NCBI GenBank assembly: GCA_037147135.1
Contig: JBAWVU010000001.1
Coordinates: forward strand, 1 to 35,352
DNA from: Chloroflexota bacterium
GTDB taxonomy: Bacteria; Chloroflexota; Limnocylindria; Limnocylindrales; CSP1-4
Direction: 5' to 3'
Length of the DNA: 35,352 nucleotides
The translations under genes were made by a program, and so were the position numbers. Below, in pieces: positions 1 through 33,571 of this stretch. The notes under the pieces were generated by a model that was not told the origin of the DNA, searched no databases, and saw only the letters and a program-made list of their open reading frames with translations. Numbering within the stretch: position 1 is the stretch's first letter; every line of letters starts with the position of its first letter.

Positions 1-690
1 GCCGGCGCGGTCCATCGCCGCGCTCACCGTCTCGACGAGCCACGCGGATCTCTCGTCGATCTCGGCTGTCGAGTCGCCTCCGACGATGACCCCGTGGTTC
101 TGCATGAGGGTGATCGCGGGGGCCGTCCGGCCGGTGCGCTCGACGTGGGCCCGGCGAGCTTCGAAGATGGCCTGGGCGAGCGGGAGGCCGGGATCGGCGT
201 ACGGGACCCACAGCGCCGCCTCGCCGAACAGAAGTCCGGCGAGGGCAGGGCCGTCGCTGTTGCACGTGACCGCATTGATGACGAGGGGGTGCGTGTGCAC
301 CACGAATCGCTCGGGCAGGAATGCGTGGAACAGCAGCTCCACGGAGGGCCGCCGCCCGCCGGCGTCGGCCAGGCGGGCCGCCATGGCCGTGCGCATGACC
401 GGATCTCCGAGCGCGTCTCCCTCCATGTCGGCTGTCGTGCCGGGTGAGTGGAGGAGCGCGAGCAGCGGCTCCATGTCGAGCGGCACGAGGTCTCCCGCGG
501 CGAGCGTCGCGAGGGCCACGCCGCTCGGCTTGATGTAGAGGACGCCGTCGACCTTCGCCGATGCGTTGCCACCTCCACCCCGCGCGAATTCCGGGTCGCG
601 GCCGAACCGCCGCGCGGCCTCGATGAGCTCGTCGAGCGTCGCGACCGGCGTCGGGGGCAGCTCGCGCCGGCCGGACTGTCGGCCGCTCAT
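1..690 (-). CDS. rhaD: Class II aldolase-domain protein, 5' part only (runs off the left edge). Probably the N-terminus of a bifunctional L-rhamnulose-1-phosphate aldolase/short-chain dehydrogenase.
   Basis: Absent from the ORF track because it has no stop in the window. My own translation of the minus strand from ATG 690-688 is open down to base 1 (no tta/cta/tca triplets in plus frame 1). It reads MSGRQSGRRELPPTPVATLDELIEAARRFGRDPEFARGGGGNASAKVDGVLYIKPSGVALATL...RFVVHTHPLVINAVTCN...ITLMQNHGVIVGGDS. The GGGN-S-K, IKPSG, HTHP and NHG pattern is as recalled for class II aldolase/adducin domains of RhaD/RhaEW fusions. ATGA overlap with the upstream gene (687-690). Rhamnose gene context. Confidence 0.75.
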   Translation of the reverse strand, partial: MSGRQSGRRELPPTPVATLDELIEAARRFGRDPEFARGGGGNASAKVDGVLYIKPSGVALATLAAGDLVPLDMEPLLALLHSPGTTADMEGDALGDPVMRTAMAARLADAGGRRPSVELLFHAFLPERFVVHTHPLVINAVTCNSDGPALAGLLFGEAALWVPYADPGLPLAQAIFEARRAHVERTGRTAPAITLMQNHGVIVGGDSTAEIDERSAWLVETVSAAMDRAG

Positions 691-1928
691 CGGGCCATCG
701 CCGGGGAGGCTGCGTGGACCAGCTCCGCCCCTTCCTCGGCGAACCAGCGGATGCGCGTCTCGCCGTCCGGGAAGCCCGGGTCGAGTCGGCCCTCACGGTC
801 GACGTAGCCCTGTCTTCCGGATGCCCGGAGACGCTGATGGGCGGCCACCACGCACGTGGCCTCCCAGAACGCCGCGCGCGCGACAGGCGACGGGAGCGAC
901 CCGTCGACACAGCGGGGCTCGAGCGGGATCCGCTCCCGCGTGTTGTGCTCCGTTCCGGCCATCACGACGATGCCGACATCACGGAACGCCGCGACATACG
1001 CGTCGACGACCGCGGGCTGGTTGCGGTTCGGGATGAGCTCGGCGACGTGGATCCCTCGCCCGAGCACGCGCTGCGCGAGCGCGTCGGGTGGCTCCTCCCA
1101 CGGGCAGACCGGCGACGCGCCGTCGGCAAGCGTGGTGTAGCAGGGGATGCCGTCCAGCTCGAGGACCAGCCGGTAGGCGTCGTCGAACGAGACCGGCGAC
1201 TCCGGCACGAACGCCGGCCGTCCCGACTTCATGAGCCTCGAGCGGATCTCGCCCTGGATGGCGATCGGCTCGTCGACCGGGGCGTCGACCGGCCCTTCGA
1301 ACGCCCTGGCCAGCAGCGCGCGCCGCCCCTCGGGAGCCACGATCCGGAAGAGCGCATCCTGGAAGGCCATGGCCACGTGGCGCTCCTGGAGCACGACCCA
1401 CTCGCGCGGGACGCCGGCCCGTTCCGCGACCTCGTCGGCGATGCTCTCCGCGTCGAGCCCGGTCTGGAGGCCGGCCCGTGTGAAGCAGGCGTCGAGCAGC
1501 GGCACCATGGCGCGCATCCGGTCCGCGTCGGCGGCGCGGACCCGTGCCAGGAGGCGTGCCCCGGCCGCCGTGGGGGTCGCGAAGGGGTCGATCCCCTTCC
1601 CGGAGAGGTACATCCGCCCGGGGTTCCCCGGGTCGTTCACCCTTGTGCCTGCGTCGCGCAGCGAGTCGTCGACGCTGATGACCTCCAGGCCGAACAGCGG
1701 GACGATGCCCGTCACCTCGGCGGCATCGGCGAACCGACGATAGATCCGATGGTCGTGGAAGTTGGAAGCGCCGAGGACGAGGATGCCCTCCGCAGCCGCG
1801 GTCTCGACGGCGTCCTCGACGGTGTCGAAGGCCGAGAAGTTGGGCGGCAGGTGAACGTGCGTGTTCGGGATGGGTCGCCGGGTCCCTGGGACCTGCCCTC
1901 CGCCGCTGCGATCGCCTGCCACGTCCAT
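687..1928 (-). CDS. PHP/amidohydrolase-like metal-dependent phosphoesterase of unknown role (413 aa)
   Basis: The track ORF 687..2384 is trimmed to ATG 1928-1926 (MDVAGDRSGG...), which is preceded by ggagcaggaag. The upstream extension is Arg/Pro-rich junk that crosses a 240-bp gap. Motifs: NTHVHLPPNFSAF (HxH near the N-terminus), GLEVISVDD, and MAGTEHN near the C-terminus. Its stop overlaps the aldolase start. That this is a gene is confident; the function is not. Confidence 0.6.
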   Translation of the reverse strand: MDVAGDRSGGGQVPGTRRPIPNTHVHLPPNFSAFDTVEDAVETAAAEGILVLGASNFHDHRIYRRFADAAEVTGIVPLFGLEVISVDDSLRDAGTRVNDPGNPGRMYLSGKGIDPFATPTAAGARLLARVRAADADRMRAMVPLLDACFTRAGLQTGLDAESIADEVAERAGVPREWVVLQERHVAMAFQDALFRIVAPEGRRALLARAFEGPVDAPVDEPIAIQGEIRSRLMKSGRPAFVPESPVSFDDAYRLVLELDGIPCYTTLADGASPVCPWEEPPDALAQRVLGRGIHVAELIPNRNQPAVVDAYVAAFRDVGIVVMAGTEHNTRERIPLEPRCVDGSLPSPVARAAFWEATCVVAAHQRLRASGRQGYVDREGRLDPGFPDGETRIRWFAEEGAELVHAASPAMAR

Positions 1929-2017
1929 CTCGCTTCCTGCTCCTCGTGCCTGGGTGCCGTCGGGCCGGCTCCGGGGCGCCATCCGGTCCGTGTCGGACAC
2001 ACTCGTTCTCTTATGAC

Positions 2018-2040
2018 TGGTTGCGATTCGTTGCACAAAT
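2018..2040 (-). promoter_or_regulatory. Candidate DeoR (RhaR) operator upstream of the PHP-aldolase transcription unit
   Basis: tggttgcgatt (2018-2028) is identical to 11036-11046, which lies upstream of the DeoR regulator gene. GTTGC occurs at 2020-2024 and 2030-2034, exactly 10 bp apart. It sits in a locally AT-richer patch of the 240-bp rhaI/PHP gap. Confidence 0.4.
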
Positions 2041-2169
2041 GACAGTGTACGCGATGCGCCGGTCGCCTTCGCCGACAGGAGCCGGGAGCTCGGTGAGGTC
2101 GGGACGCGGTTCGTCGAGCGCCATCCCGGTCTCCCGCGATGAGGCGTGGGCTCGCGGTTCGGCGTCGTC

Positions 2170-3390
2170 TCAGCCCCAGCCGGCCGCTGCGCCGCCGGCC
2201 CGGGCGGCCGCCCGGGCCTCGGCCTCGCCGCTGTCGAGGTAGGCCCGGAACGGATCGGCCGGCAGGCCGCGGGCCGTGCGCAGCTCCGAGAGGAGCGGCC
2301 GGACGTCGGTGGAGAAGGCGTCCTGCAGGAGCCCGTTGGCCTCGAGGACATCGCCCGCCGCCTGCGCCAGCAGGAGCGCATCACGGTCGACGAGGAGTGC
2401 CTTCGCCATCGTCTCCTGGAGGTTCATGACCGAGCGGATCATGGCCGGGATCTTCGGCTCGATGTTGTGGCACTGGTCGAGCATGTAGACGACCTCGCTC
2501 GCGCAACGCTGCGCGACAGGGTCGCCGTCGTCGCGCATGGCGTTGACCAGCTCGTGCGCGATCCGGAACAGCTGGTACGGGTCGATCGAGCCGACCATGA
2601 GGTCGTCGTCGCCGTACTTCTTGTCGTTGAGGTCGAAGCCGCCGAGGCGCCCCACCGCCAGGAGGATCGCCACGATCTGCTCGATGTTGACGCCCATCGC
2701 ATGGTGGCCCGTGTCGACGCAGACGGTGGCCTGCTCGCCGACCGCGTCACATACCGACAGCGCCTGGCCCCAGTCCTGGACGTCGGTGGAGTAGAGGGCC
2801 GGCTCGTAGAGCTTGTACTCGAGGAACATCCGCACGCCCGCCGGCAGGTGCGGGTGGATCTCGCGCAGGCCCTCCACGAGGCGGTGGCGGCGCCAGCGCA
2901 TGTCGTCCTGGCCCGGGTAGTTGGTCCCGTCGCCCAGCCAGACCTTGACCACCTGCGAGCCGGTCGCAGCCGCGATCTCGCAGCATTCGACGATGGCCCG
3001 GACGGCCTTGGCCCGCACCGTGGCCGACGGGTGGCAGAGCGAGCCGAACTTGTAGTCCTCGTCCTGGAACGTGTTGCTGTTGATGCCGCCGATGCGGAGG
3101 CCGCGCTCCGCCGCGTAGGCCGTGAAGGCCGGCCAATCGTCCACCCGGTCCCAGGGGACATGGAGGGCGACGGAGCCCGCGATCCCCGTATACCGGTTGA
3201 CGGTGGCCGCGTCGTCGACCTTCTCGAACGCGTCGCGCGGCACGCCCGGCTGCGGGAAGACCCGGAAGCGGGTGCCGGTGTTGACGAAGCCCCACGACGG
3301 CAGCTCGATGGCAAGGCCGCTCACGGCCCACTCGATGCGATCGAGCGCGGAGGCGGTGGCGGGTCGGGTCACGGACTCGTTCAGGGCCAC
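2170..3390 (-). CDS. rhaI: L-rhamnose isomerase (xylose-isomerase-like TIM barrel type)
   Basis: 406 aa. GTG start 3390 is preceded by ggaaggag. Sequence: ...ELPSWGFVNTGTRFRVF...ALHVPWD...NSNTFQDEDYKFGSLCHP...VWLGDGTNYPGQDD...FLEYKLYEPALYSTDV...DTGHHAMGVNIEQIV...FDLNDKKYGDDDLMVGS. This matches my recollection of actinobacterial/Pseudomonas-type RhaI. Rhamnose context. Confidence 0.9.
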   Translation of the reverse strand: MALNESVTRPATASALDRIEWAVSGLAIELPSWGFVNTGTRFRVFPQPGVPRDAFEKVDDAATVNRYTGIAGSVALHVPWDRVDDWPAFTAYAAERGLRIGGINSNTFQDEDYKFGSLCHPSATVRAKAVRAIVECCEIAAATGSQVVKVWLGDGTNYPGQDDMRWRRHRLVEGLREIHPHLPAGVRMFLEYKLYEPALYSTDVQDWGQALSVCDAVGEQATVCVDTGHHAMGVNIEQIVAILLAVGRLGGFDLNDKKYGDDDLMVGSIDPYQLFRIAHELVNAMRDDGDPVAQRCASEVVYMLDQCHNIEPKIPAMIRSVMNLQETMAKALLVDRDALLLAQAAGDVLEANGLLQDAFSTDVRPLLSELRTARGLPADPFRAYLDSGEAEARAAARAGGAAAGWG

Positions 3391-3435
3391 GATGGTCTCC
3401 TTCCAGGCCGGCGGTCCCGGCCGCGTGTGGCTCCG

Positions 3436-4947
3436 TCAGGACGTGGCGGACGCCGGTGCAGGCGAGGGCGAGCGGCGGGCGGCGAGCATGGCTCCGAAGC
3501 GCGCGCGGGCCTCGGCCCAGTCGCCCTCGGGCTCGAAGGTGGTCACGGTGAACGACCGGGCGATGAGCGCGCGGGCTTCGGCCACGTCCGCCAGCTCGCC
3601 GGCGGCGATGGCCTGGACGGCGAGGTTGCCGATCGCCGTCGCCTCGACGGGTCCGGCCCGGACCGGGAGGCCCGTCGCGCCCGCGGTCAGCCGGCACAGC
3701 AGTCGGTGGTTCGACCCGCCACCCACCACGTGGATCGCCTCGACGAGATGGCCAGAGGCCCGCGCGAGCTCGTCGACCGCGACCGCGTAGCGGAGCGCGA
3801 GGCTCTCGAGGAGCACCCGGACGAGGGTCCCGACATCGGTGGGTACCGGCTGGCCGGTCTCCGTGCAGAACGCGCGCACCCGCGCCGGCAGGTCGCCGGG
3901 GCGCAGGAAGCGCTCGTCGTCGGGGTCGATGAACGCCGTGAAGGCCGGGGCCGTCTCGGCGAGCGCGGCCAGCTCCTCGTACGAGGGGGCGTCGCCCCCC
4001 GGCCAGATCGCACGACGGCTTTCCTGGACCAGCCAGAGGCCCATCACGTTCCGCAACAGGCGCACCGTGCCCGCGACGCCGCCCTCGTTGGTGAGGTTGG
4101 CGGCCCGAGTCGCCTCGGTGATCACCGGGGCGGGCATCTCCAGGCCGATGAGCGACCATGTCCCGGAGCTCAGGAACGCGGTCGTCGGGCCGGCGAGCGG
4201 CGCCCCGACCACGGCGGAGGCCGTGTCGTGCGAGCCCGGCGCCACGACGCGGGCGCCGCGCAGGCCCGTGTCCGCCGCCACGTCCGCGCGCATGGGGCCC
4301 AGGTCGGTTCCCGGCGCGACGATCGGCGGCAGGATCTCGGTCGGGATGCCGAAGCGGGCGAGCAGGGGCCGCGCCCAGTCGCGGGCGACCGGATCCAGGC
4401 ACTGGCTGGTGCTGGCGTTCGTGTACTCGGCGACCGCGCTTCCCGCCAGGAAGTGGTGGAAGAGGTCGGCCATCATGAGCAGCCGGTCGGCCTGGTCCAG
4501 TAGCGGGTCGCCCGCGCGGACCATCGAGAGCAGCTGGTAGAGCGTGTTGATGGGCATGAGCTGGATGCCCGTGGCGGCGTAGATCTCGTCGCGCGGCACG
4601 ACCGCGAACGCGAAACCGGGCATCCCTTCGGTGCGCCCATCCCGGTAGTGCACCGGGTTCGCCAGGAGGCGGCCGCGGGCGTCGAGCAGCCCGAAGTCGA
4701 CGCCCCACGTGTCCACGCCCACCGACGCCACGGGCCCGTCGGCAGCGGCCCGCCGGAGGCCGGCGGTCACCTCGCCGAAGAGGCGGAGGAAGTCCCAGTG
4801 GAGGGTGCCCGCGAGCGTGACCGGGACGTTCGGGAACCGGTGAACGTCCTCGAGGGCCAGGCGCCCGCCATCGAAGGTGCCGACGACGACGCGCCCGCTC
4901 TCCGCGCCAAGGTCGACGGCGGCCATCCGGAACGGGGTGTCAGTCAA
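3436..4947 (-). CDS. rhaB: Rhamnulokinase (FGGY family)
   Basis: Motifs: AAVDLGAESGRVVVG, GVDTWGVDFGLLD, ANPVHYRD, PINTLYQL, HVVGGGSNHRLLCRLTAGATGLPV. The start is ambiguous: TTG 4947 (8-nt overlap with rhaM) or ATG 4926 (MAAVDLG). Confidence 0.85.
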   Translation of the reverse strand: MTDTPFRMAAVDLGAESGRVVVGTFDGGRLALEDVHRFPNVPVTLAGTLHWDFLRLFGEVTAGLRRAAADGPVASVGVDTWGVDFGLLDARGRLLANPVHYRDGRTEGMPGFAFAVVPRDEIYAATGIQLMPINTLYQLLSMVRAGDPLLDQADRLLMMADLFHHFLAGSAVAEYTNASTSQCLDPVARDWARPLLARFGIPTEILPPIVAPGTDLGPMRADVAADTGLRGARVVAPGSHDTASAVVGAPLAGPTTAFLSSGTWSLIGLEMPAPVITEATRAANLTNEGGVAGTVRLLRNVMGLWLVQESRRAIWPGGDAPSYEELAALAETAPAFTAFIDPDDERFLRPGDLPARVRAFCTETGQPVPTDVGTLVRVLLESLALRYAVAVDELARASGHLVEAIHVVGGGSNHRLLCRLTAGATGLPVRAGPVEATAIGNLAVQAIAAGELADVAEARALIARSFTVTTFEPEGDWAEARARFGAMLAARRSPSPAPASATS

Positions 4948-16236: not shown

Positions 16237-16282
16237 CCGGCCCGCGCCCGTGTTCGGCCCCGACCGCTTGCAGGAGCTCACG

Positions 16283-16702
16283 ATGCTGAAGACCCGCCTG
16301 CTCCACCCCGCGATCCTGGAGGCGCTCGGCGAGGCCGGCCACGGCGCCCAGGTCCTCATCGCGGACGGCAACTATCCCCTGCTGACCCGGTCGAACGAGG
16401 CCGCCCACCGCGTCTACCTGAACCTGGCGCCGGGCCTCCTCACCGTCACGGACGTCCTTGGGGTGCTGATCGACGCGATCCCGATCGAGGCGGCGCACGT
16501 GATGGCCCCCGACAGCGGCGAGGAGCCCGGCATCTTCGCCGAGTTCCGCGAGATGCTGCCAGGCACCCCGCTCCAGGGGCTCGGGCGCTTCGGGTTCTAC
16601 GACATGGCGCGCGGCCCCGACCTGGCGCTTGCCATCGCCACCGGCGAGCAGCGGATCTACGCCAACCTCCTCCTGACGATCGGCGTGGTGATGCCCGAGT
16701 AG
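16283..16702 (+). CDS. fucU: L-fucose mutarotase (RbsD/FucU family)
   Basis: Trimmed to ATG 16283, preceded by aggag. MLKTRLLHPAILEALGEAGHGAQVLIADGNYP...ATGEQRIYANLLLTIGVV parallels E. coli FucU (MLKT...GHGDEI...TGERAKYGNILLKKGV). It lies immediately upstream of fucI. Confidence 0.85.
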   Translation: MLKTRLLHPAILEALGEAGHGAQVLIADGNYPLLTRSNEAAHRVYLNLAPGLLTVTDVLGVLIDAIPIEAAHVMAPDSGEEPGIFAEFREMLPGTPLQGLGRFGFYDMARGPDLALAIATGEQRIYANLLLTIGVVMPE

Positions 16703-16771
16703 CGGTCGGCTGGACCAGGCGGCGCTCGCTCGCTGCCGCGGTGCACACCATTCGGACGAGAGAGGGACCCG

Positions 16772-18574
16772 ATGACGACGATCGACACCACCGGCCGCTT
16801 CGTGGGCGACTGGCCCAGGATCGGCATCCGCCCGGCCATCGACGGCCGGATGCACGGCGTGCGCGAGTCGCTCGAGGCGCAGACGGCGGCGATGGCGCGC
16901 CGCACGGCCGACCTCCTCGTCGCGAACCTGCGCTACCCGGACGGGACGCCCGTCGAGGTCGTCGTCCCCGACCACACCATCGGTGGCGTGTACGAGGCCG
17001 CCAAGGTCGCCGAGCTCTTCCGCAAGGAGGGGGTGGGAGTCTCCATCACCATCACGCCGTGCTGGTGCTACGGCTCTGAGACGATGGACATGGATCCCCT
17101 CACCCCCAAGGCGGTCTGGGGCTTCAACGGCACCGAGCGCCCGGGTGCGGTCTACCTCGCGGCCGTCCTCGCGGCCCACACGCAGAAGGGCCTCCCGGCG
17201 TTCGGCATCTACGGGCGCGACGTCCAGGATGCCGACGACGGGACGATCCCGGCCGACGTGCAGGTGAAGATCCTCCGGTTCGCCCGGGCCGGCCTCGCGG
17301 CGGCGATCCTGCGCGGCAAGTCGTACCTCTCGCTCGGCGGCGTCTCGATGGGCATCGCCGGCTCCATCGTGGACCAGGCGTTCTTCGAGAAGTACCTCGG
17401 CATGCGCGTCGAGTGCGTCGACATGTCCGAGCTCACGCGCCGTCTCGACGAGGGGATCTACGACCCGGTCGAGCTCGACAGGGCGCTCGCCTGGACGAAG
17501 GCGAGCTGTCGCGAGGGCACGGACCGCAACCCCGCGGACAGGGCCAAGAGCCGCGAGGAGAAGGACCGCGACTGGGAGACGGTGGTCAAGATGACCCTGA
17601 TCACCCGCGACCTCCTCGTCGGAAGCCCGCGCCTCGCCGAGCTCGGGTTCGGCGAAGAGGCGATGGGTCGCAACGCGATCGTCGGCGGCTTCCAGGGCCA
17701 GCGCCAGTGGACCGACCACGCCCCCAACGGCGACTTCATGGAGGCGATCCTCAACTCGTCGTTCGACTGGAACGGGATCCGGGCGCCGCACATCTTCGCG
17801 ACGGAGAACGACAGCCTCAACGGCGCGACGATGCTCCTCGGCTACCTGCTGACGAACCGTGCCCAGATCTTCGCCGACGTCCGCACGTACTGGAGCCCGG
17901 AGGCCGTGAAGCGCGTCACCGGCCACGACCTCGAGGGTCGAGCCGCGGGTGGCTTCATCCACCTCATCAACTCCGGTGCTGCCACGCTCGACGCGACCGG
18001 CGCGATGGAAGCCGATGGCCAGCCGGTCATGAAGCCGTTCTGGGAGATCACCGAGGGCGACGTGCAGGCGGCCCTCGCGGCGACCACGTGGTACCCGGCC
18101 AACCGGGGCTACTTCCGGGGCGGCGGGTACTCCTCGCAATTCGTGAGCAAGGGCAGCATGCCCGTCACCATGGCCCGCCTCAACCTGGTCTCCGGCGCCG
18201 GGCCGGTGCTCCAGATCGCCGAGGGCTGGACGGTCGACCTGCCGCGGGATGTCCACGACATCCTCGACCAGCGCACCGACCCGACGTGGCCGACGCACTG
18301 GTTCGTGCCGCGCACCAACGGCGTCGGCCCGTTCCGCGACGTGTACGCCGTCATGGCGAACTGGGCCGCCAACCACGGCGCGATCAGCTTCGGCCACATC
18401 GGGGCCGACCTCATCAGCCTCGCGTCGATCCTCCGGATCCCGGTCCACATGCACAACGTGCCGGAGGAGGACATCTTCCGGCCGAGCGCGTGGGCCAACC
18501 TCGGCACGGCCGATCTCGAGGGCGCCGACTTCCGTGCCTGCGCCGACTTCGGCCCGCTCTACGGCCGCCGCTGA
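16772..18574 (+). CDS. fucI: L-fucose isomerase
   Basis: 600 aa. [107 protein letters not shown] and [11 protein letters not shown] are colinear with E. coli FucI as I recall it. Confidence 0.95.
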
Positions 18575-24380: not shown

Positions 24381-24404
24381 GGGCGCGCCTCGCGGGCCGC
24401 GCCC
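24381..24404. terminator. Possible bidirectional hairpin between the convergent FGGY and PfkB kinase genes
   Basis: gggcgcg (24381-87) / cgcgccc (24398-404), a 7-bp GC stem with a 10-nt loop, in a 48-bp convergent gap. Weak evidence. Confidence 0.3.
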
Positions 24405-24418
24405 GCAGTATCGGTCCT

Positions 24419-25360
24419 TCAGGCCGGGTCGGACTCGTCCATCTCGGCCCGCGTCGGTGGCTGGGCGCCTGCCCGCGTGCAGGTGATCGCCGCCGCCCGG
24501 TCGGCGCACGTCAGGGCCTCGCGCAACGCGTCCGCCGGGATCTCCCGGATGCTCGCTCTCTCGAGCCGGCCGGCGGCGTGCAGCCACGCGAGGAGGCCCG
24601 AGGTGAAGGCGTCACCGGCGCCCACGGTGTCCGAGACCACGACCGGCGTTCCTGCGACGGCGACGCGGTCCCGGGCCGTCAGGCCGATGGAGCCGTCGGC
24701 TCCCCTCGTGACGACGACAAGACCGGGACCGCGCGCCAGCCACGCCTCAGCCGCCGCGTCCGGTGCCGTCTCCGGGTAGAGCCACGCGAGATCGGCACGG
24801 CTCACCTTCACGACGTCCGCGAGCGAGACCCACCCTTCGAGGCGGGCGACGTAGGCCGGACGATCACCGACGAGGCTCGGGCGGACGTTGGGATCCAGGC
24901 TGAGCACCCGGCTCCCGTGCTCCCGGCGCATGACCGCCTCGAAGGCCGACGCCCCGGGCTCGCGGACCATCGAGATCGAGCCGAAGTGCAGGGCGGTGAC
25001 CTCCGAGGGAAGGACGGCGGGGAGGTCGTCGACGCGGAGCATCCGGTCCGCGGCGTTCACGTCGTGGAACGTGTACACCGGTTCGGCCCCCGTCTCCAGG
25101 TGGACGATGGCCAGGGTCGAGAGCTCGTCGCCCTCCTGCACGAGCCGGCAGTCCACCCCGTCGGCCAGCAGGCGCCGGCGCAGCATCTGCCCGAACGGAT
25201 CCCGGGAGACCCGCCCCATGAACCCGACGGGGATGCCCAGCCTGCCGAGGCCCACCGCCACGTTGAACGACGAGCCGCCGGCCCGCGCGACGTAGGCCGG
25301 CTCGTCACCCTGCGACAGCGGGACGAGATCGATGAGCGCCTCGCCACAGACCAGGATCAT
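24419..25360 (-). CDS. PfkB-family sugar kinase (fructokinase-like)
   Basis: MILVCGEALIDLVP...AGGSSFNVAVGLGRLG, LSLDPNVRP, DTVGAGDAFTSGLL. RBS gggggaga. Confidence 0.85.
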   Translation of the reverse strand: MILVCGEALIDLVPLSQGDEPAYVARAGGSSFNVAVGLGRLGIPVGFMGRVSRDPFGQMLRRRLLADGVDCRLVQEGDELSTLAIVHLETGAEPVYTFHDVNAADRMLRVDDLPAVLPSEVTALHFGSISMVREPGASAFEAVMRREHGSRVLSLDPNVRPSLVGDRPAYVARLEGWVSLADVVKVSRADLAWLYPETAPDAAAEAWLARGPGLVVVTRGADGSIGLTARDRVAVAGTPVVVSDTVGAGDAFTSGLLAWLHAAGRLERASIREIPADALREALTCADRAAAITCTRAGAQPPTRAEMDESDPA

Positions 25361-25426
25361 CTGTCTCCCCCACGGTCGACCGTGCGTGACCGCCTGCCTC
25401 GAACGCTCGGCGGCCGCCGTCGCCCT

Positions 25427-26719
25427 CTAGGCGCTTCCCACATCGCGGCGCAGCGACGCCGCATCCTCGAGGCGCCGCCGGATGGCCCCGAGGAACCGCG
25501 CCCCCAGCTCGCCGTCGACGAGCCGGTGATCGGCTGACAGCGTGAGCTTCATGACCGACCGGACGGCGATCCCGTCGCCGAGCGCCACCGGCGTGGGGAC
25601 CGCGCTCGCCACGGCGAGTATGGCCGCCTCGCCCGGGTTGATGATCGCGCTGAACTCCTCGACGCCGAACATGCCGAGGTTCGACACGGTGAACGTGCTC
25701 CCGGTCATGTCGTCGACCGGCAGCGTCCCGTCCCGCGCCGCGGCCGCGAGCGCCGCAGCCTTTCCGTGGAGCTCGTCGATCGCCAGCCGGTCCGCGTCGC
25801 GGATGACGGGCACGACGAGCCCGGCCGGCACCGTCACCGCGAGCCCGAGGTGGACGCGGCGCCTCGTCCAGACCGAGACGCCGTCCGTCCGCGAGTTCAC
25901 GTCGGGCATCTCGGCAAGGGTCTGCGCTGTCGCGAGCAGGATGAAGTCGGTGACCGTGTAGCTCCGGCCCGCCGCCTTGAGCTCCTCTCGGAGCGCGAGC
26001 AGCCGCGTGACGTCCACGGCGACCGTCACGGTGAAGTGGGGGATCGTCGCGAAGCTCTGCGTGAGGCGCTCGGCGATGACGCGCCGCATCCGGCTGAGTG
26101 GGCGCGGCTCCTCCTCGCCGTCGACGGCCGCGACGAAGGCCACAGGCGTCGGCGCGGCGGCCGCAGGGGAGACCGGCGCGGCGGTCCCAGGCGTCGGCGC
26201 CGCGGTCGCGATGTCGCGCGCGGCCATCGCAGCACGGACGTCCCGCTCCACCACCCGTCCTTCCGGCCCGGTGCCGGCGACCGCCCGGGGGTCGAGGCCG
26301 GCGTCCGCGGCGAGTCGAGCGGCACGCGGGCTGATGCGCAGCCGCGCGGACATGTCGGTCGGCGTGGCCGGAGCCACCGGGGCTGGTGGAGCGGCAGCGG
26401 CGGCCGGGATCGTCGCGACAGGCTCGACCGGGGTCGCGGGCGCCGGGGCGGCCTCGGGCGGTGCCTCGGGGATGTCCTCGCCGGGCATGCCGACGTACGC
26501 GCAGACCGTGTTGACCGGGACCGTCTCGCCCACTTCCACGAGGCGCCGCAGGAGGACTCCCTCGTCGAACGCCTCCACGTCCATGACCGACTTGTCGGTC
26601 TCGATCTCGAAGAGGACGTCACCCCGATGGACCGGGTCGCCCTCGTTCTTGTGCCAGGCGACGACGACGCATTCCTCGGTCATCTGCCCGGGCTTCGGCA
26701 TGAGGATCGGATGGACCAT
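25427..26719 (-). CDS. Dihydrolipoamide acyltransferase (E2) of a 2-oxoacid/acetoin-type dehydrogenase complex
   Basis: Lipoyl domain with IETDKSVMDV, Ala/Pro linkers, a peripheral-subunit-binding domain (ISPRAARLAADAGLD), and a catalytic domain ending LTLSADHRLVDG. RBS gagggaa. Confidence 0.9.
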   Translation of the reverse strand: MVHPILMPKPGQMTEECVVVAWHKNEGDPVHRGDVLFEIETDKSVMDVEAFDEGVLLRRLVEVGETVPVNTVCAYVGMPGEDIPEAPPEAAPAPATPVEPVATIPAAAAAPPAPVAPATPTDMSARLRISPRAARLAADAGLDPRAVAGTGPEGRVVERDVRAAMAARDIATAAPTPGTAAPVSPAAAAPTPVAFVAAVDGEEEPRPLSRMRRVIAERLTQSFATIPHFTVTVAVDVTRLLALREELKAAGRSYTVTDFILLATAQTLAEMPDVNSRTDGVSVWTRRRVHLGLAVTVPAGLVVPVIRDADRLAIDELHGKAAALAAAARDGTLPVDDMTGSTFTVSNLGMFGVEEFSAIINPGEAAILAVASAVPTPVALGDGIAVRSVMKLTLSADHRLVDGELGARFLGAIRRRLEDAASLRRDVGSA

Positions 26720-26776
26720 CGGGGTTCCCTCGGCGACTTGGACGGATCGGGCGATCCTGGAAGTGCGGCAGCTCGG

Positions 26777-29080
26777 CTACACGAGCGCCAGGACGGCGTG
26801 GACGATGTCGTCGGCGTTCGGGAGGAACGCCTTCTCGAGGCCCTCGGCCTGCGGGGAGATCCCGTTCGCGGCCCCGATCCGCCCCACCGGGCCGTCGAGG
26901 AAGTCGAAGGCCTCGAGCTGGATCCGCGCGACGACCTCGTTCACGAAGCTGCCGACGAGGACCGCCTGGCTGGCCACCACGCAGCGGCCGGTCTTGCGGA
27001 CGGAGGCGAGGACGGTCTCGATGTCGAGCGGGACGAGGCTCCGGAGATCGATCACCTCCGCGGAGATCCCATGCGCGGCCTGCAGCGTGTCGGCGGCTGC
27101 GAGCGCGTCGAGGACCGCGGGCCCCCACGCGACGAGCGTCGCGTCGGTCCCGTCGCGCGCGACGCGCGCGACCCCCAACGGCACGAGATGCTCCCCCTCG
27201 GGCACGACGCCCTTCGTCGTATAGAGCCCCTGGCCCTCGACGAACATGACCGGGTTGTTCGTCCGGATGGCCGACTTGAGGAGCCCCTTCGCGTCGGCCG
27301 GCGTCGCCGGATAGACGATGTAGAGGCCCGGCAGGTGGGTGAAGATGCTCTCGAGCGACTGCGAGTGCTGGCCGCCGTAGCCCTTGCCTGCGCCGACGGA
27401 TGCGCGGATGACGAGGGGAACCTCGACCTGCGCCCCGCTCATGTAGTGCCACTTCGCAGCCTGGTTGGCGATCTGGTCCGAGGACATCAGGGCGAAATCC
27501 ATGTACATGAGCTCGACGACCGGTCGAATGCCGACGATCGCCGCGCCGACCGCCGTCCCGCAGATGCAGGCCTCCGAGATCGGCGTGTTGAACACGCGGT
27601 CCCGCCCGAACGACTCGAGGAGCCCCTTCGTGAGCTTGAACGCGCCGCCATAGTCCGCGACATCCTCGCCGTAGAAAATGACCCGTGCGTCGCGCGTCAT
27701 CTCCTCGACCATCGCCTCGCGGAGGGCGTCCTTGTAGCTGATCCGGCCGTCTGCGTCCCGGCTGGTGGCGGGCGGCGGCGCGTGGGTCACGCTCTCCCGC
27801 GCTCGGGCCGGCACCTCGTCCGCCGCCGTGTCCGTGTAGAGGTACCGCAGGACGTCGGCAGGATCCGGGTCGGCCGCCCCGGCCGCCCGGACGGCGGCAC
27901 GCGCATTCCGATCCCGCGCCCCGGCCTCGACCGCTGCGAGCCCATCGGCGTCGGCGACGCCGCTCGCGACCAGCTGGGTCCTGAGCCGCTCGATCGGATC
28001 GGTCGCCTTCCAGGCGGCTTCCTCCTCCCGCGTCCGGTACTCGTTGCGCGGGTCGGACAGCGAGTGACCGTAGTAGCGGTACGTGCTGGCCTCGATGAGG
28101 ACCGGCCCCTCGCCGGCACGGCAGAGTGCCCCGGCTCGGCGGACGGCATCGCGTACGGCGAGCACGTCCATCCCGTTGACGACCTCCGCGTGCATCCCGT
28201 CCTCGGCGAAGCCGGCGCCGCGCCGTGCGAGGTGGCGGATCCCCATGACCTCGTCGTCGGTCCGGCCGGTCATCCCGTAGTGGTTGTTCTGGATGAAGTA
28301 GATGATCGGGAGCCCGTATGGGTGGTCGCCCGCGAGGTGGTTGGTCCACTGCGCCTGCGCCGCCCAGTTGAGCGACTCGAGCACGACGCCGTTCGCGTAC
28401 GCGCCGTCGCCGGCGAAGCAGCACACGACGCGGTCCGACCGTTCGTAGCGGGCGGCCATCGCGGCCCCTGTCGCGATCGGCACGCTGCCACCGACGATCG
28501 CGTTCGCGCCGAGGTTGCCGGTCGCGAAATCGCCGATGTGCATCCCGCCGCCGCGGCCGTGGGAGTAGCCCTCCTCCTTGCCGAAGAGCTCCGCGATCAC
28601 CCGGTACACGTGCTCCTCGAGAGCCTCTTCGATGAGCTCGTCGTGCGTCGTGGCCGTCGTGCCCGGCACGCGTGCCCGGAGCTCCTCGTCGCTCATGTGG
28701 CGGATCGCCGCGAACCCCTTGGCGATCGCGTCACCGTGCCCGCGATGGGAGCTGGTGACCTGGTCGTCCGGGCGGAGGGCGGTGCACGCTCCCACCGCCG
28801 TGCCCTCCTGCCCGATCGAGACGTGGGTGGGGCCGCGGTAGTCGTACCCCGGCAGCGCGTCGTAGCCGCCCGATCTCAGGCGGACGATCATCTCCTCCAG
28901 CTCGCGGATCGCGAGCATGTCGTCGAGGAGGGCGAGCGCCTCGGCGGGGTCGATCCCGCCGGCGCCGAGCTCCGAGGCGAGGTCGCCCGCGTACGCGAAG
29001 CCGACGACGGAGCCGCAGGACTCGTCGAAGGGCGCGAAGTCCGGTCGCGTGTCGCTCTTGTAGGTCGGCTCCGCTGTCAT
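26777..29080 (-). CDS. Fused E1 alpha + E1 beta thiamine-diphosphate-dependent dehydrogenase (acetoin/2-oxoacid dehydrogenase E1 type)
   Basis: 767 aa. The alpha part (residues ~1-430) has SHRGHG, the ThDP motif FAGDGAYANG...IQNNHYG, and TYRYYGHSLSD. The beta part starts near residue ~446: ISYKDALREAMVEEM, GEDVADYGGAFKLTKGL, FNTPISE, ELMYMDF, EVIDLRSLVPLD. RBS ggagg. Confidence 0.9.
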   Translation of the reverse strand: MTAEPTYKSDTRPDFAPFDESCGSVVGFAYAGDLASELGAGGIDPAEALALLDDMLAIRELEEMIVRLRSGGYDALPGYDYRGPTHVSIGQEGTAVGACTALRPDDQVTSSHRGHGDAIAKGFAAIRHMSDEELRARVPGTTATTHDELIEEALEEHVYRVIAELFGKEEGYSHGRGGGMHIGDFATGNLGANAIVGGSVPIATGAAMAARYERSDRVVCCFAGDGAYANGVVLESLNWAAQAQWTNHLAGDHPYGLPIIYFIQNNHYGMTGRTDDEVMGIRHLARRGAGFAEDGMHAEVVNGMDVLAVRDAVRRAGALCRAGEGPVLIEASTYRYYGHSLSDPRNEYRTREEEAAWKATDPIERLRTQLVASGVADADGLAAVEAGARDRNARAAVRAAGAADPDPADVLRYLYTDTAADEVPARARESVTHAPPPATSRDADGRISYKDALREAMVEEMTRDARVIFYGEDVADYGGAFKLTKGLLESFGRDRVFNTPISEACICGTAVGAAIVGIRPVVELMYMDFALMSSDQIANQAAKWHYMSGAQVEVPLVIRASVGAGKGYGGQHSQSLESIFTHLPGLYIVYPATPADAKGLLKSAIRTNNPVMFVEGQGLYTTKGVVPEGEHLVPLGVARVARDGTDATLVAWGPAVLDALAAADTLQAAHGISAEVIDLRSLVPLDIETVLASVRKTGRCVVASQAVLVGSFVNEVVARIQLEAFDFLDGPVGRIGAANGISPQAEGLEKAFLPNADDIVHAVLALV

Positions 29081-29135
29081 CGTCTGCCTCCGGGTGTCTG
29101 TGTCGGGGCTGTCTGGCGGGTCGCGTGGTGGCGGG

Positions 29136-29939
29136 TCACGCGGTGATCACCCGGATCCCGCGCCGCTTGAGCGTGCGCGCAGTCCGCTCGTCGATCCCCG
29201 TGTCGGTCACGAGGACGTCGATATCGCCGATGCTCCCGGCGCTCACGAACGAACGGGTGCCTATCTTCGTGCTGTCGGCGAGGAGGATCACCTCGCGGGC
29301 CCGCCGCATGACCAGTTCCTTCGTGTACGCCTCCGATGGATCGGTCGTCGTGAGCCCATCCTCGACGGAGAAGGCGAACGTTCCCATGAGCGCCCGGTCC
29401 ACGTTGAGGGTGTCGAGGAGCAGGCGAGAGAGCGGCCCCACGAGCGCACGGCTCGTCGCCCGCAGCTCCCCGCCGATGACGATGAGGCGCGGGCCGCGCC
29501 CGGCGAGCTCGTTCGCCGCAGGGAGGCTGTTCGTCACGACGGTCAGGCGCGTCCAGCCGTGGAGCAGCCGGGCGGCCGCCAGCACGGTGCTGCCGCTGTC
29601 GAGGTACACGGTGTCGTCCGGCGCCACGAGCTCGACTGCGCGCTGCGCGATGCGAAGCTTCTCGTCGGCCGCCGTGGACGCCTTCGCGTCGAAGTGCGGC
29701 TCGTCGAGGTGCTCGTCGACGGCGACGGCTCCTCCGTGCACGCGGCGGAGGCGACCGGTGGTGGCCAGCGCGTCGAGGTCGCGGCGCACGGTCGCCTGCG
29801 ACACCCCCAGCACGGCACTGAGCTCCTCCAGGCGTGCGGCGCGCCGCGAATCGACGATCTGGCCAAGCCGCTGGCGGCGGCGCGCCGCTAGATCGTGCGC
29901 CGGGGCAGGTGTGTCGTCATCGTGCAGGACCTTCCCCAT
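29136..29939 (-). CDS. DeoR-family transcriptional regulator
   Basis: RRRQRLGQIVDSRRAARLEELSAVLGVSQATVRRDLDAL is the HTH. The sensor domain reads VYLDSGSTVLAAARLL...VVTNSL. ATG 29939 is preferred (see the -10 at 29949-54); GTG 29948 is possible. Confidence 0.85.
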   Translation of the reverse strand: MGKVLHDDDTPAPAHDLAARRRQRLGQIVDSRRAARLEELSAVLGVSQATVRRDLDALATTGRLRRVHGGAVAVDEHLDEPHFDAKASTAADEKLRIAQRAVELVAPDDTVYLDSGSTVLAAARLLHGWTRLTVVTNSLPAANELAGRGPRLIVIGGELRATSRALVGPLSRLLLDTLNVDRALMGTFAFSVEDGLTTTDPSEAYTKELVMRRAREVILLADSTKIGTRSFVSAGSIGDIDVLVTDTGIDERTARTLKRRGIRVITA

Positions 29940-29948
29940 ATCGCGCAC

Positions 29949-29954
29949 ATTCTA
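29949..29954 (-). promoter_or_regulatory. -10-like hexamer TAGAAT directly upstream of the DeoR gene (possible leaderless or short-leader transcript)
   Basis: Plus-strand attcta is minus-strand TAGAAT. The ATG at 29939 lies 9 nt downstream of it. One of the few AT-rich hexamers in this region. Confidence 0.3.
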
Positions 29955-30040
29955 GCGTTATCTTGCAGGAACGTGCTCGCGACGATCTCGCGCCGCCACC
30001 TCGCGTGGCCGAGCGGCAGCGGCCCCGTGGATCGCGGCCC

Positions 30041-31089: not shown

Positions 31090-32094
31090 GTGACGTCGGC
31101 CCATGTCGAGTTCGAGCTGTTGGCTCGCATCGCCTCGCAGTACTTCCTCCAGGACCGCACCCAGGCAGACATCGCCATCGAATACGGGCTCTCCCGCCAG
31201 AAGGTACAGCGCCTGATCCGCCGAGCACGTGAGCAGGGGATCGTGGAGATCCACGTCCATTCTGCGCCCGTGCTCCACATCGAGCTTGAGAACAAGCTCC
31301 GGACGACATTCGGCCTGCAGGACGCCCTGGTGGCCACGTCCCATCCGGACGAGTCCGTGTGCCGCAGCCTGGTGGCGCGGGCAGCGGCCGAGTACCTGGT
31401 TCGCCACCTGACGGACGGGAGCGTCGTGGCCATCGGTCTTGGGCGCAACACGAGCGCCGTCGCCGGCGCATTCGACCCACCTCGGCCGCTGGGCGCCACA
31501 TTCGTCAGCGCCATGGGCGGCTCGCCTGGGTTCACGGCCTCCATCAACCCGAACGAAGTCGGCTCGGCGTTCGCCGCCCGGTCGGGAGGGTCGGCCCAGG
31601 CGCTGTTCGCACCCGCATTCGTCGAGGACGCGTCGCTACGGGCCGGCCTCTTGGGCCAGCAGGCGATCGCCCAGACCCTCGACCTGGCGCGCCGGTCCAC
31701 AGGGGCGATCGTCGGCATCGGGACTGCGGCCGATGAGTCGATCCTGGTGCACGCCGGCTGCCTCTCGAAGGATCAGGCCCGGGCGCTTCGTGCCGCGGGT
31801 GCGGTCGGTGAGATCAACGGCAACTACTACGACGTCCACGGTCGCCCCATCCCCTCGACCACGCAGGAGAGCCTCATCGGCCTGACCCTGGCGGAGCTCG
31901 AACGCGTCCCCCTGGTCGTCGCCGTCGCCGCCGAACCGGGGAAGGCCACCGCGATCCTCGGGGCGCTGCGAAGTGGCGCCATCCGCGTGCTGGTCACCGA
32001 GTGTCGCAATGCTCTCGAGGTGCTGCGACTCGCGGGAGTGACCGATCTCGAAGAAGAGGCATCGCTCCTGGGGGGAAAACGTGACTGCTGGTAG
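31090..32094 (+). CDS. SorC/DeoR-type sugar-binding transcriptional regulator
   Basis: ELLARIASQYFLQDRTQADIAIEYGLSRQKVQRLIRRAREQGIVEIHV is a SorC-family N-terminal HTH. The sugar-phosphate-binding domain reads AIGLGRNTSAV...IVGIGTA...GEINGNYYDVHG...VVAVAAEPGKATAILGALRSG. There is no in-frame ATG. GTG 31090 is chosen and GTG 31066 is possible. The track start 30955 lies inside the palindrome. Confidence 0.8.
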   Translation: MTSAHVEFELLARIASQYFLQDRTQADIAIEYGLSRQKVQRLIRRAREQGIVEIHVHSAPVLHIELENKLRTTFGLQDALVATSHPDESVCRSLVARAAAEYLVRHLTDGSVVAIGLGRNTSAVAGAFDPPRPLGATFVSAMGGSPGFTASINPNEVGSAFAARSGGSAQALFAPAFVEDASLRAGLLGQQAIAQTLDLARRSTGAIVGIGTAADESILVHAGCLSKDQARALRAAGAVGEINGNYYDVHGRPIPSTTQESLIGLTLAELERVPLVVAVAAEPGKATAILGALRSGAIRVLVTECRNALEVLRLAGVTDLEEEASLLGGKRDCW

Positions 32095-32431
32095 CGAAGG
32101 TTTCGTGTTCGTCCTGCAACACCGCCACGAGCGCTTCGATCTGATGCCATTCAGCATCGCTCGCACCTGGCGCGAGGAGATGGGTCTGGACGTCGCCCTG
32201 TACGCGATGTACGACGCGGTCGAGCTGCTGAAGAAGGACACCATCGTCGAGTACCCGGAGATCCGCGAGGCGGTGGATGCGCTGTTGGCCGACGGCGTTC
32301 CCGTGTATGCCTGCGGCTTCTGCTCCCGCGCCTGTCAGCTCGCGGCCGATGACTATTACCCGGGCGTTCAGCTGGGCAATCGCCATATCTTCCTCAAGCT
32401 CATGATGGAGCGCCAGTCTCTGTACTACTAG
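32081..32431 (+). CDS. DsrE/DsrF/YchN-like small protein (116 aa), function unknown
   Basis: GTG start preceded by ggggga. It overlaps the SorC gene by 14 nt. An N-terminal beta-strand GFVFVLQH, then ...DVALYAMYDAVELL...GVPVYACGFCSRACQL...GVQLGN...LMMERQSLYY. This fits the DsrE-fold pattern (first strand, central Cys-containing 'vyvC' segment, C-terminal strand) as I recall it. The family call is tentative. Confidence 0.6.
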   Translation: MTAGSEGFVFVLQHRHERFDLMPFSIARTWREEMGLDVALYAMYDAVELLKKDTIVEYPEIREAVDALLADGVPVYACGFCSRACQLAADDYYPGVQLGNRHIFLKLMMERQSLYY

Positions 32432-32467
32432 GCGCAGCAGCGGTCAGGGTCCGCATGTCCCGTATGC

Positions 32468-33370
32468 ATGGATGAGAGGTTTCGCGTGCAGCCTGTAACG
32501 GATCGCGGTGTCGTCGCTGAGGACCTTGTCAAGGTGCCGCAGCGGATGTACGACGGATACATCTTCGACCTGGATGGCACGATATATCTCGGCAGTGCTC
32601 TGCTGCCAGGCGCCTATCGGCTCATCATCAAGCTGCGTGAGCTGGGCAAGCGCGTGGTATTCCTCTCGAACAACCCCACTCGCGATGTCCAGATGTATGT
32701 GGACAAGCTGACCAAGCTGGGGCTGCCCACACCGTCAGAGGAGATCGTCACCACCGTCTTCACCACCACGCAATGGCTCCTGCAGAACGCTCCGGATGCA
32801 GTCGTCTTTCCGATCAGCGAGGAGCCCCTCATCCGTTCGTTCCGCGAGAACGGCATCAAGATGTCGGAGAACCCGGAAGAGATCGACATCGTCGTCGCCA
32901 GCTACGACCGGACGCTGACCTGGAAGAAGCTCCAGATCGGCTTCGAAGCCATGTGGTACTACCGGCGGGCGAAGCTGATCTGCACGAACGCCGACCACTT
33001 CTGCCCGTTCCCCGGCGGGCGGGGCGAGCTGGATGCCGGGGCGGTCGTCGCTGCCCTGGAAGACGCGACCCAGATGAAGCTGGCGGTCAACTGCGGCAAG
33101 CCCAGCCGAGTCATGCTGGACACGATCATGAACGTGGTCGGGCTCAAGACTTCGCAATGCATCACCACCGGTGATCGTCTCTACACCGAGATCAAGATGG
33201 GGATCGACTCGGGCATGGACACCGCCGTGGTGTTCACGGGCGAGACCTCTCCCGAGATCCTCGCGGGATGGCCCGCCGAAGGCCAACCCACGTATGCTCT
33301 TGACCGGATCGACCGGCTGATTCCGCTTGCCCTGTGGCAGGATTTCGGCTGGACGGACACGAACGGCTGA
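32468..33370 (+). CDS. HAD-superfamily hydrolase, subfamily IIA (NagD/AraL-like sugar phosphatase)
   Basis: YIFDLDGTIYLG (motif I), VFLSNNPTR (motif II), CGKPS (motif III Lys), TTGDRLYTEIKMGIDSGMDTAVVFTGET (motif IV, GDRxxTDI-like). The alternative start GTG 32486 has a better RBS (gagagg). Confidence 0.85.
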   Translation: MDERFRVQPVTDRGVVAEDLVKVPQRMYDGYIFDLDGTIYLGSALLPGAYRLIIKLRELGKRVVFLSNNPTRDVQMYVDKLTKLGLPTPSEEIVTTVFTTTQWLLQNAPDAVVFPISEEPLIRSFRENGIKMSENPEEIDIVVASYDRTLTWKKLQIGFEAMWYYRRAKLICTNADHFCPFPGGRGELDAGAVVAALEDATQMKLAVNCGKPSRVMLDTIMNVVGLKTSQCITTGDRLYTEIKMGIDSGMDTAVVFTGETSPEILAGWPAEGQPTYALDRIDRLIPLALWQDFGWTDTNG

Positions 33371-33571
33371 GTCGACACTCCTTGGCCGCTTCGACGACCG
33401 CATCCGAGTACAGCTCCGTGAGGAGGTGATCGTTGCTCTCAACCAGGTGACAAGGACGTGACCATCTGCGCGGGTGCTTCGGGCAGGCGCTCGTACGGTC
33501 GGAGTCGCGTCACTGGGTAGCACGCCAGCTCTGGGATGTCTAGACCACACCTAGGGAGGACCAGACTCAAC

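Follow-up and report, generated by a model that had tools for sequence, protein, structure and literature searches.

The 35,352-nt stretch of DNA analysed here (the window; contig JBAWVU010000001.1, G+C content 70%) comes from an uncultured soil Chloroflexota bacterium with a draft assembly of 3.1 Mb in 573 contigs that is 86% complete, and the nearest relatives of the window genes belong to metagenome-assembled genomes labelled Chloroflexota or Candidatus Limnocylindria. Four genes on its minus strand encode, in order, a DeoR-family regulator, a fused thiamine diphosphate (ThDP)-dependent E1 alpha-beta protein, an E2 acyltransferase and a PfkB kinase. They are separated by gaps of 55, 57 and 66 nt, and a GGAGG-like ribosome-binding site stands ahead of every one of them. 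An earlier note, made from the sequence alone, had described this arrangement, with its short gaps, individual ribosome-binding sites and domains, and it was borne out when domains were called with Pfam and NCBIfam models at their curated cut-offs. The parts of the operon are as follows.

29920..29995, minus strand: promoter and candidate DeoR operator, from a conserved alignment of 40 loci
29136..29948, minus strand: DeoR-family regulator that opens the operon (GTG start at 29948, with an in-frame ATG at 29939), with HTH_DeoR and DeoRC domains (PF08220, PF00455)
26777..29080, minus strand: fused E1 alpha-beta, 767 amino acids, ThDP-dependent, with E1_dh, Transket_pyr and Transketolase_C in a single chain
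25427..26719, minus strand: E2 dihydrolipoyl acyltransferase, with lipoyl domain (PF00364), peripheral-subunit (E3)-binding domain (PF02817) and catalytic core (PF00198)
24419..25360, minus strand: fructokinase-like sugar kinase of the PfkB family (PF00294), closing the operon
24381..24404, no strand assigned: hairpin rich in G+C (stem GGGCGCG/CGCGCCC, loop of 10 nt) where the PfkB and FGGY genes converge, read from the sequence

The signals around these genes point to a single autoregulated DeoR-E1-E2-PfkB transcript. The upstream regions of 40 DeoR-type loci share the alignment TTGAC..CGCAAGAT..TGCTAGAAT..start codon..TGAGCGAT, with a TAGAAT -10 box about 7 nt ahead of the DeoR start codon, a layout kept in all 40 that suggests a leaderless DeoR mRNA. 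Three same-strand repeats, TGCAAGAT, TGCGCGAT and TGCACGAT, start at 29967, 29947 and 29926, respectively, with a spacing of 20–21 bp, and form the only cluster of at least three such repeats in the window; we infer that these repeats at the DeoR promoter are its operator. The strict consensus TGCNNGAT was tried as an operator across all loci and proved too strict, most loci having no or one exact copy and the aligned repeat being more degenerate. The 55-nt gap between DeoR and E1 contains no promoter comparable to the conserved DeoR promoter, and a consensus scan for promoters and terminators gave no match in the 70% G+C operon region. The hairpin behind the kinase gene is a possible terminator lacking a T-run; the terminator scan, which demands such a run, passed over it. 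The regulator itself has the N-terminal DeoR helix-turn-helix and the C-terminal DeoRC sensor of its family, and its best NCBIfam model is that of haloarchaeal GlpR, matched with 202 bits, under the cut-off of that model.

The catalytic motifs of the fused E1 are intact. GDGAYANG...NNHYGM, the alpha YGHS histidine, the beta PISE glutamate and the beta QHSQ histidine all align with human E1, the YGHS histidine with the catalytic histidine of the human enzyme, and the protein thus has the GDG...NN motif, the activating glutamate and the two catalytic histidines of a ThDP-binding E1 of the heterotetramer-type 2-oxoacid dehydrogenase complexes. The substrates known for E1/E2/E3 complexes are few, namely pyruvate, 2-oxoglutarate, branched-chain 2-oxoacids and acetoin. 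All NCBIfam equivalog cut-offs for pyruvate dehydrogenase (PDH) were missed, by E1 alpha (262 vs 394), by E1 beta (355 vs 454) and by E2 (312 vs 445). The best model for E1 alpha is PDH_E1_alph_y, and the beta part passes the PDH E1 beta 'subfamily' model (357 vs 321); we dropped this pass as evidence for a PDH, since an AcoC-linked (acetoin-type) beta subunit passes the same model with a higher score. The alpha motif, HRGHG versus YRxHG, was also tried to split Aco enzymes from PDH. It sets apart one PDH clade only, and it is undecisive because most unfused Chloroflexota E1s of unassigned function also have HRGHG. From its sequence, the window E1 cannot be told to be acetoin-type or PDH-type by the available models, and the label 'acetoin-type' in the earlier note finds no support in them. 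E1 relatives in the species collection number 412, and the best 80 of these 412 are 76–89% identical and nearly all labelled Chloroflexota or Limnocylindria. Presence and absence were counted over 121 genomes of the source family, with an identity of at least 71% defining a fused-E1 orthologue, and in a sample of 400 Chloroflexota such orthologues were confined to this family and one genome of its sister family. A homodimer-type AceE above cut-off is present in the source genome and in five of five other Limnocylindria genomes tested. Because AceE co-exists with it, and because orthologues occur in only 24 of the 121 family genomes, the fused E1 is an accessory catabolic module and not the main PDH of the cell.

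E2 shows TDK as its lipoyl motif and DHRLVDG as its catalytic one, and with its lipoyl-lysine domain, peripheral-subunit-binding domain and DHRxxDG core it is a complete E2. The solved structures nearest to it are mitochondrial-type PDH E2, and the AcoC model is matched by its lipoyl domain only, the rest of the protein being canonical. The earlier note had stressed that the operon comes without E3. No lipoamide dehydrogenase gene was indeed found within the window, but this is no feature of the system. The source genome has lipA and two Lpd genes (TIGR01350) above cut-off, on contigs C285 and C547, and all genome-wide matches lie on contigs other than that of the window. Furthermore, among the 81 loci orthologous to the fused E1, over which all neighbourhood counts were taken, eight have an in-frame E2–E3 fusion of about 900–950 amino acids directly after the fused E1 (for example L094:12287-15124, L100:6136-8874 and L111:12290-15028), in which a short linker joins the E2 core (DHRIVDG) to a complete Lpd (GAGTGGY ... 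CLHRGC). In those loci the complex would consist of two polypeptides; we know of no described E2–E3 fusion. Because Lpd is encoded elsewhere in the genome, E2 has an E3-binding domain and relatives have E2–E3 fusions, we predict that the ordinary E1-E2-E3 redox cycle is used and that the missing E3 gene is no functional lack. Limnocylindria relatives also have an lpd-E1a-E1b-E2-lipA operon, the E2 of which best matches SucB_Actino (actinobacterial SucB). At the contig end after the C285 Lpd gene, an 83-amino-acid stretch is 71% identical to the E2 of this operon; it is probably what remains of a second E2 truncated where the contig breaks off.

Across the 81 loci, the most constant companion of the fused E1 is a regulator. 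In 62 loci it immediately precedes E1 on the same strand, and it belongs to the DeoR family in 39 (orthologues with 62–74% identity to the window DeoR) and to the SorC family in 23, so that two unrelated families of sugar-phosphate sensors replace each other at one position. E1 is followed by E2, and the genes after E2 are more variable: a canonical transaldolase in 16 loci, Y_phosphatase3 in 8 and PfkB in 5. Within 11 kb of E1, the scope used for wider neighbours, we found a GntR regulator in 34 loci, a split transketolase in 31–33, a second transaldolase-like gene in 15, rhamnulokinase and RhaI in 8–10 and FucI in 6. A set consisting of a RhaEW-like aldolase/SDR, a 575-amino-acid MDR and a 413-amino-acid PHP protein occurs in about 16. 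No amino-acid catabolic genes were found among the E1 neighbours in the window and the 81 loci. Neighbours vary even inside the genus, three genomes (G001, G002 and G005) having a plain SorC-E1-E2 arrangement, while in G006, the closest relative (89% identity), E1-E2 is divergent from a PHP-RhaEW-MDR-ZnADH-RhaR-ABC operon headed by the PHP gene.

Co-occurrence over the family genomes was assessed with Fisher tests, the p-values of which ignore relatedness and physical linkage and therefore overstate the association. An orthologue of the long MDR is present in nine genomes spanning at least five genera, and all nine are E1-positive (p = 1e-7); the MDR/RhaEW-like set seems to depend on E1, whereas E1 also occurs without that set. 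The transaldolase that follows E2 immediately and in the same orientation (L070:13646-14743, plus 15 further loci) is of the canonical mycobacterial type. It is found in only 8 of the 121 genomes, 6 of them with E1 (p = 7e-4); this rarity and its enrichment alongside E1 mark it as accessory and not housekeeping. In one locus (L035, G023:C30, 1277-17463), a transaldolase-like gene, a five-gene HAAT-type ABC transporter, a split transketolase, DeoR, E1, E2 and Y_phosphatase3 are co-directional, with GntR on the opposite strand; this cluster suggests that an imported substrate may be processed by transketolase and transaldolase together with E1/E2.

The kinase at the end of the window operon looks like an ordinary fructokinase, judged by its relatives. 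Among solved structures, the Brucella PfkB entries 4U7X/4WJM match it best (245 bits), and it is 45–48% identical to Frk-like kinases of alpha-proteobacteria (Brucella, Sinorhizobium), including 47% to the S. meliloti kinase adjoining pgi. It does not reach the cut-off of the fructokinase equivalog NF006957 (176 vs 450). The earlier note had given PfkB a role in the system; with this likeness and a place directly after E2 in so few loci, the linkage is a minority arrangement, and the kinase would be a late, lineage-specific addition to the operon.

More distant relatives of the fused E1 also stand among sugar genes. Fused homologues with 43–48% identity in other Chloroflexota classes sit in rhamnose gene clusters, the fullest of which reads DeoR-RhaB-RhaI-class II aldolase-long MDR-SDR-E1 up to the contig end, and two others MDR-SDR-E1-E2. 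Plasmids of cultured alpha-proteobacteria encode an 821-amino-acid fused E1 followed by an 80-amino-acid lipoyl protein, an AcoC-like alpha/beta hydrolase and a SorC regulator. On R. johnstonii 3841 pRL8, the accompanying genes encode a sugar ABC transporter, a sugar-phosphate isomerase, an RbsD/FucU protein and a PfkB kinase with 42% identity to the window kinase, and on Pleomorphomonas pSM30-1 they include an FGGY kinase. In S. meliloti, an unfused E1 analogue lies within a sugar ABC/FGGY kinase/SDR operon. No aldolase gene was found in the pRL8, pSM30-1 and S. meliloti operons. The S. meliloti L175 operon (CP090106.1, 3518000-3527000) comprises a sugar ABC transporter, E1 alpha, E1 beta, a small hypothetical gene, an alpha/beta hydrolase, a carboxymuconolactone-decarboxylase-like gene, an FGGY kinase and two SDRs. 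The record is labelled pSymB, and the replicon is the chromosome, since it measures 3.7 Mb and pdhA, pgi and bkd genes are on it. This operon is a tractable model for sugar-linked Aco-like systems.

We placed these proteins in a maximum-likelihood tree, built by a quick search from 44 rows of E1 alpha and beta cores and rooted on the S. meliloti branched-chain 2-oxoacid dehydrogenase (BCKDH), in which support is SH-aLRT only, from a short search, and two long branches are unreliable. The window E1 clade (support 99) has a pRL8-type clade as its sister, a pairing with support 100, and sits behind a branch of 0.53. Five E1s make up the sister clade, three of them beside sugar genes: those of pRL8 and Pleomorphomonas, in aldolase-less operons, and a Chloroflexota member that adjoins E2 and Lpd in a rhamnose cluster. 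Of the two remaining Chloroflexota members, one has a transaldolase-like gene in its vicinity, and L159 has no sugar context. Neither of these two clades includes the PDH or BCKDH of S. meliloti, the Limnocylindria lpd operon or the AcoC-linked E1s of S. meliloti and Aminobacter. Because the fused group of the rhamnose operons is a separate clade, the E1 alpha-beta fusion arose at least twice. Three insertions are common to the window and pRL8-type clades and absent from all other aligned E1s: 7 residues before the GPTH motif, 33–45 residues after HRGHG..KGF and 12 residues inside the ThDP motif. The earlier note had named, as an outcome that would count against its proposal, a tight branching of E1 with characterised acetoin or pyruvate dehydrogenases and a loss of the linkage in relatives. 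We observed neither: the window E1 is not close to the PDH, BCKDH and AcoC-linked E1s compared, and the regulator linkage is retained in 62 loci, although that of the kinase, which the note had named with it, is not (5 loci). The sugar link itself is real and conserved, in the DeoR or SorC gene ahead of E1 and in the sugar genes of the sister-clade operons.

The window contains rhamnose and fucose genes of its own, apart from the E1 operon.

1..4947, minus strand: end of a rhamnose-type operon, four genes (RhaEW-like, PHP, RhaI, rhamnulokinase)
1-792, minus strand: N-terminus of the RhaEW-like aldolase/SDR, with an Aldolase_II domain at 34-630
687-1928, minus strand: PHP phosphoesterase, 413 amino acids, by predicted fold
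2170-3390, minus strand: RhaI (NCBIfam RhaI_grampos, 560 bits, above cut-off)
3436-4947, minus strand: rhamnulokinase (NCBIfam, 454 bits)
16250..18574, plus strand: FucU mutarotase and L-fucose isomerase (Pfam RbsD_FucU and Fucose_iso domains)

The window starts inside the RhaEW-like gene. Its C-terminal part and the 575-amino-acid long MDR were found on contig C360, which probably abuts the left end of the window and continues the rhamnose operon. The earlier note had remarked on a missing aldolase for the fucose module, and FucA was indeed not found, the assembly, 86% complete, having no class II aldolase domain other than that of the RhaEW-like gene at the left edge of the window. The conserved 413-amino-acid protein beside RhaEW has an N-terminal NTHVHLPPNFSAF motif and no significant Pfam family; its predicted fold is that of a PHP metal-dependent phosphoesterase (pLDDT 85; Foldseek E of about 1e-10 to 3O0F and 2YB1), a modelled fold that is informative, yet does not fix the pathway. 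The longest open reading frame of this gene (565 amino acids, start at 2384) overlaps rhaI, and the start at 1928 agrees with the homologues. At the other end of the window, in the SorC/HAD-IIA/FGGY region (32000-35352), G+C content falls from about 70% to 61–65% over the final 3.4 kb.

Because of the rhamnose operons, the fucose neighbours, the dependence of the long MDR on E1 and a published prediction for C. bescii described below, we favour, with a probability of roughly 0.45, a model in which the complex is the acyl-CoA-forming end module of deoxy-sugar (rhamnose/fucose-type) catabolism and acts on a lactaldehyde-derived C3 unit. The DeoR protein would repress its own operon and be released by a sugar phosphate, the putative effector. 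E1 alpha-beta and E2 would make up a lipoate-dependent complex of the pyruvate/acetoin-dehydrogenase lineage with conventional chemistry: ThDP on E1 would generate an acyl-anion equivalent, the lipoyl arm of E2 would take up the acyl group oxidatively and pass it on to coenzyme A (CoA), and the E3 encoded elsewhere would reoxidise lipoamide with NAD+. Two C3 substrates are candidates. One is pyruvate, which might be formed by the co-occurring RhaW-like and MDR dehydrogenases; the other is L-lactaldehyde itself, the nor-methyl analogue of acetoin, from which it differs by one methyl group. Several observations weigh against this model. The predicted operator is absent upstream of the rhamnose and fucose genes in a repeat search of the window. 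RhaI is absent from 16 of the 24 E1-positive genomes, and its co-occurrence with E1, which we had considered as support, is weak (8 of 25 RhaI-positive family genomes, p = 0.08). The commonest neighbours, split transketolase, transaldolase and GntR (31–34 of 81 loci), are unexplained by a C3 substrate. Were the substrate pyruvate, the complex would be redundant with AceE, and as a RhaW-like lactaldehyde dehydrogenase domain is already present in the rhamnose operon, lactaldehyde need not reach E1.

A related proposal concerns the type of substrate. The sequence evidence would also be compatible with a complex that uses no 2-oxoacid at all and converts a sugar-derived alpha-hydroxy-carbonyl, either L-lactaldehyde or a kinase-made 1-deoxy-ketose phosphate, into an acyl-CoA plus an aldehyde or aldose phosphate; we hold this tentatively, leaning a little against it. 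Its second variant leads to the idea of the earlier note, specified here, that E1 alpha-beta breaks the bond adjoining the carbonyl of a phosphorylated keto-sugar and passes the acyl fragment to the lipoyl-E2. A 1-deoxy-ketose phosphate would be the best chemical fit, 1-deoxyxylulose 5-phosphate giving acetyl-CoA and glyceraldehyde 3-phosphate, or 1-deoxyfructose 6-phosphate giving acetyl-CoA and erythrose 4-phosphate. A PfkB or FGGY kinase would make the substrate, and transketolase and transaldolase would take the aldose phosphate. The transaldolase enriched in E1-positive genomes and the nearby split transketolase agree with this scheme, as do the sugar-phosphate-type regulators ahead of E1 and the aldolase-less operons of pRL8 and pSM30-1, where E1 and SorC stand together with a lipoyl protein, an AcoC-like hydrolase, a kinase and a sugar ABC transporter, and the unfused S. 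meliloti analogue. The likeness of the pRL8 kinase to the window PfkB, the failure to find FucA and the C. difficile aco genes, which are headed by a DeoR-type regulator and not acetoin-induced, count on the same side, and no such pathway was found described in the literature searched. However, the reaction is without precedent, a natural source of 1-deoxy-ketoses is uncertain, and the fuculose and rhamnulose 1-phosphates would yield chemically awkward products. The rhamnose operons with fused E1 homologues do have an aldolase, and the window PfkB, rarely placed after E2, resembles a housekeeping fructokinase as much as it does the pRL8 kinase. We consider cleavage of a keto-sugar phosphate less likely than the C3 model, which suits the rhamnose and fucose neighbourhoods no worse.

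Less likely still is an ordinary second PDH or acetoin dehydrogenase with no dedicated sugar pathway, in which DeoR would be a glycolytic-flux sensor of the CggR/GlpR type and the sugar neighbours would belong to a mobile sugar-utilisation island. The mitochondrial-type PDH E2 structures nearest to E2, the PDH models matched best by E1 alpha and passed by E1 beta, and the neighbours that differ so much between loci, even within the genus, would all agree with it, and the regulator-first layout resembles cggR-gapA of Bacillus subtilis. Yet the beta model is also passed by an AcoC-linked beta, every PDH equivalog cut-off was missed, the clade has a long branch and three insertions of its own, AceE is already there, the long MDR is limited to E1-positive genomes, and the sugar association recurs in distant phyla (Chloroflexota and alpha-proteobacteria). 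A branched-chain 2-oxoacid dehydrogenase, as in the source annotation '2-oxoisovalerate dehydrogenase E1 component' and the JGI names of many homologues, which follow the KEGG group for fused E1 proteins, is very improbable and was rejected on model scores and tree, E1 alpha scoring 152 bits against human PDH structures and 84 bits against BCKDH, with the S. meliloti BCKDH and the Limnocylindria lpd-E1a-E1b-E2-lipA operon outside the clade and no amino-acid catabolic genes nearby.

A distinct fused-E1 lineage is repeatedly tied to sugar regulators, kinases, transaldolase/transketolase and rhamnose/fucose genes in Chloroflexota and alpha-proteobacteria. If the substrate is a sugar-derived hydroxy-carbonyl, this would be a new reaction for the enzyme class: a lipoate-dependent substitute for an aldolase or aldehyde-dehydrogenase step and an undescribed entry to central metabolism, which would account for the so far unexplained final step of deoxy-sugar breakdown in organisms without the usual enzymes. 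If the substrate is pyruvate, what is left is a spare PDH under sugar regulation that has unusual fusions, E1 alpha-beta here and E2–E3 in relatives. The cultured carriers, R. johnstonii 3841 with pRL8 and S. meliloti, make the substrate question directly testable. A literature search found no paper on lipoate-dependent sugar cleavage, deoxyxylulose catabolism, Limnocylindria PDH or the pRL8 locus, and RhaEW was characterised without mention of an E1/E2 (Rodionova et al. 2013).

Among known systems, the heterotetrameric-E1 PDH of alpha-proteobacteria and mitochondria provides the best models and structures for the E1 halves and E2, and shares the catalytic residues and the E3-binding domain. 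Unlike it, the window complex has equivalog scores that are too low, does not group with S. meliloti PDH and is accessory beside AceE. With the AcoABCL systems of Bacillus subtilis, Cupriavidus necator and Pelobacter carbinolicus the operon shares a ThDP E1 of the same broad lineage, and the alpha HRGHG motif is also found in the AcoC-linked E1s compared. In these systems, lipoate acyl transfer follows cleavage of an alpha-hydroxy-carbonyl and not decarboxylation, and sigma-54 activators and induction by acetoin are the rule (as summarised in Wetzel et al. 2023, bioRxiv 10.1101/2023.07.28.551048). By contrast, the window has a sugar-phosphate-type regulator, a fused E1 with three insertions and sugar-gene neighbours; an acetoin dehydrogenase system would be recognised by an AcoC-type E2, or by acoL with acetoin-responsive regulation, and here E2 is canonical, the regulator is of DeoR type and no acoL lies in the window.

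Closer in layout is C. difficile acoRABCL (CD0035-CD0039), a single transcript headed by a DeoR-family regulator, which is repressed, not induced, by acetoin and for which no acetoin use was detected (Wetzel et al. 2023, bioRxiv 10.1101/2023.07.28.551048). There too a DeoR-family gene comes first in an Aco-like E1-E2(-E3) operon, an experimental precedent for co-transcription; it differs in its separate E1 subunits, the acoL (E3) gene in the operon, the lack of a kinase and a sporulation phenotype. The pRL8 and pSM30-1 operons, which are annotated only, have the sister-clade E1 with the three insertions and an adjoining sugar kinase and SorC, but identity is about 40%, E2 function is split into an 80-amino-acid lipoyl carrier and an alpha/beta hydrolase, and a sugar ABC transporter is part of the locus. 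Finally, in the rhamnose cluster of C. bescii, an organism described as having neither lactaldehyde dehydrogenase nor reductase, an acetoin-dehydrogenase-like enzyme (Athe_0702-0704) was predicted, without assay, for the final lactaldehyde step (Rodionov et al. 2021, PMC8579813). Both cases join an E1/E2-type ThDP/lipoyl set to a deoxy-sugar cluster and a DeoR-family regulator (RhaR2 in C. bescii). The two were likened by description only, and C. bescii is a Firmicute anaerobe with three subunits, whereas in the window E1 is fused, a RhaW-like domain is present and the operon stands apart from the rhamnose genes. The sugar association of such complexes was thus partly anticipated in print.

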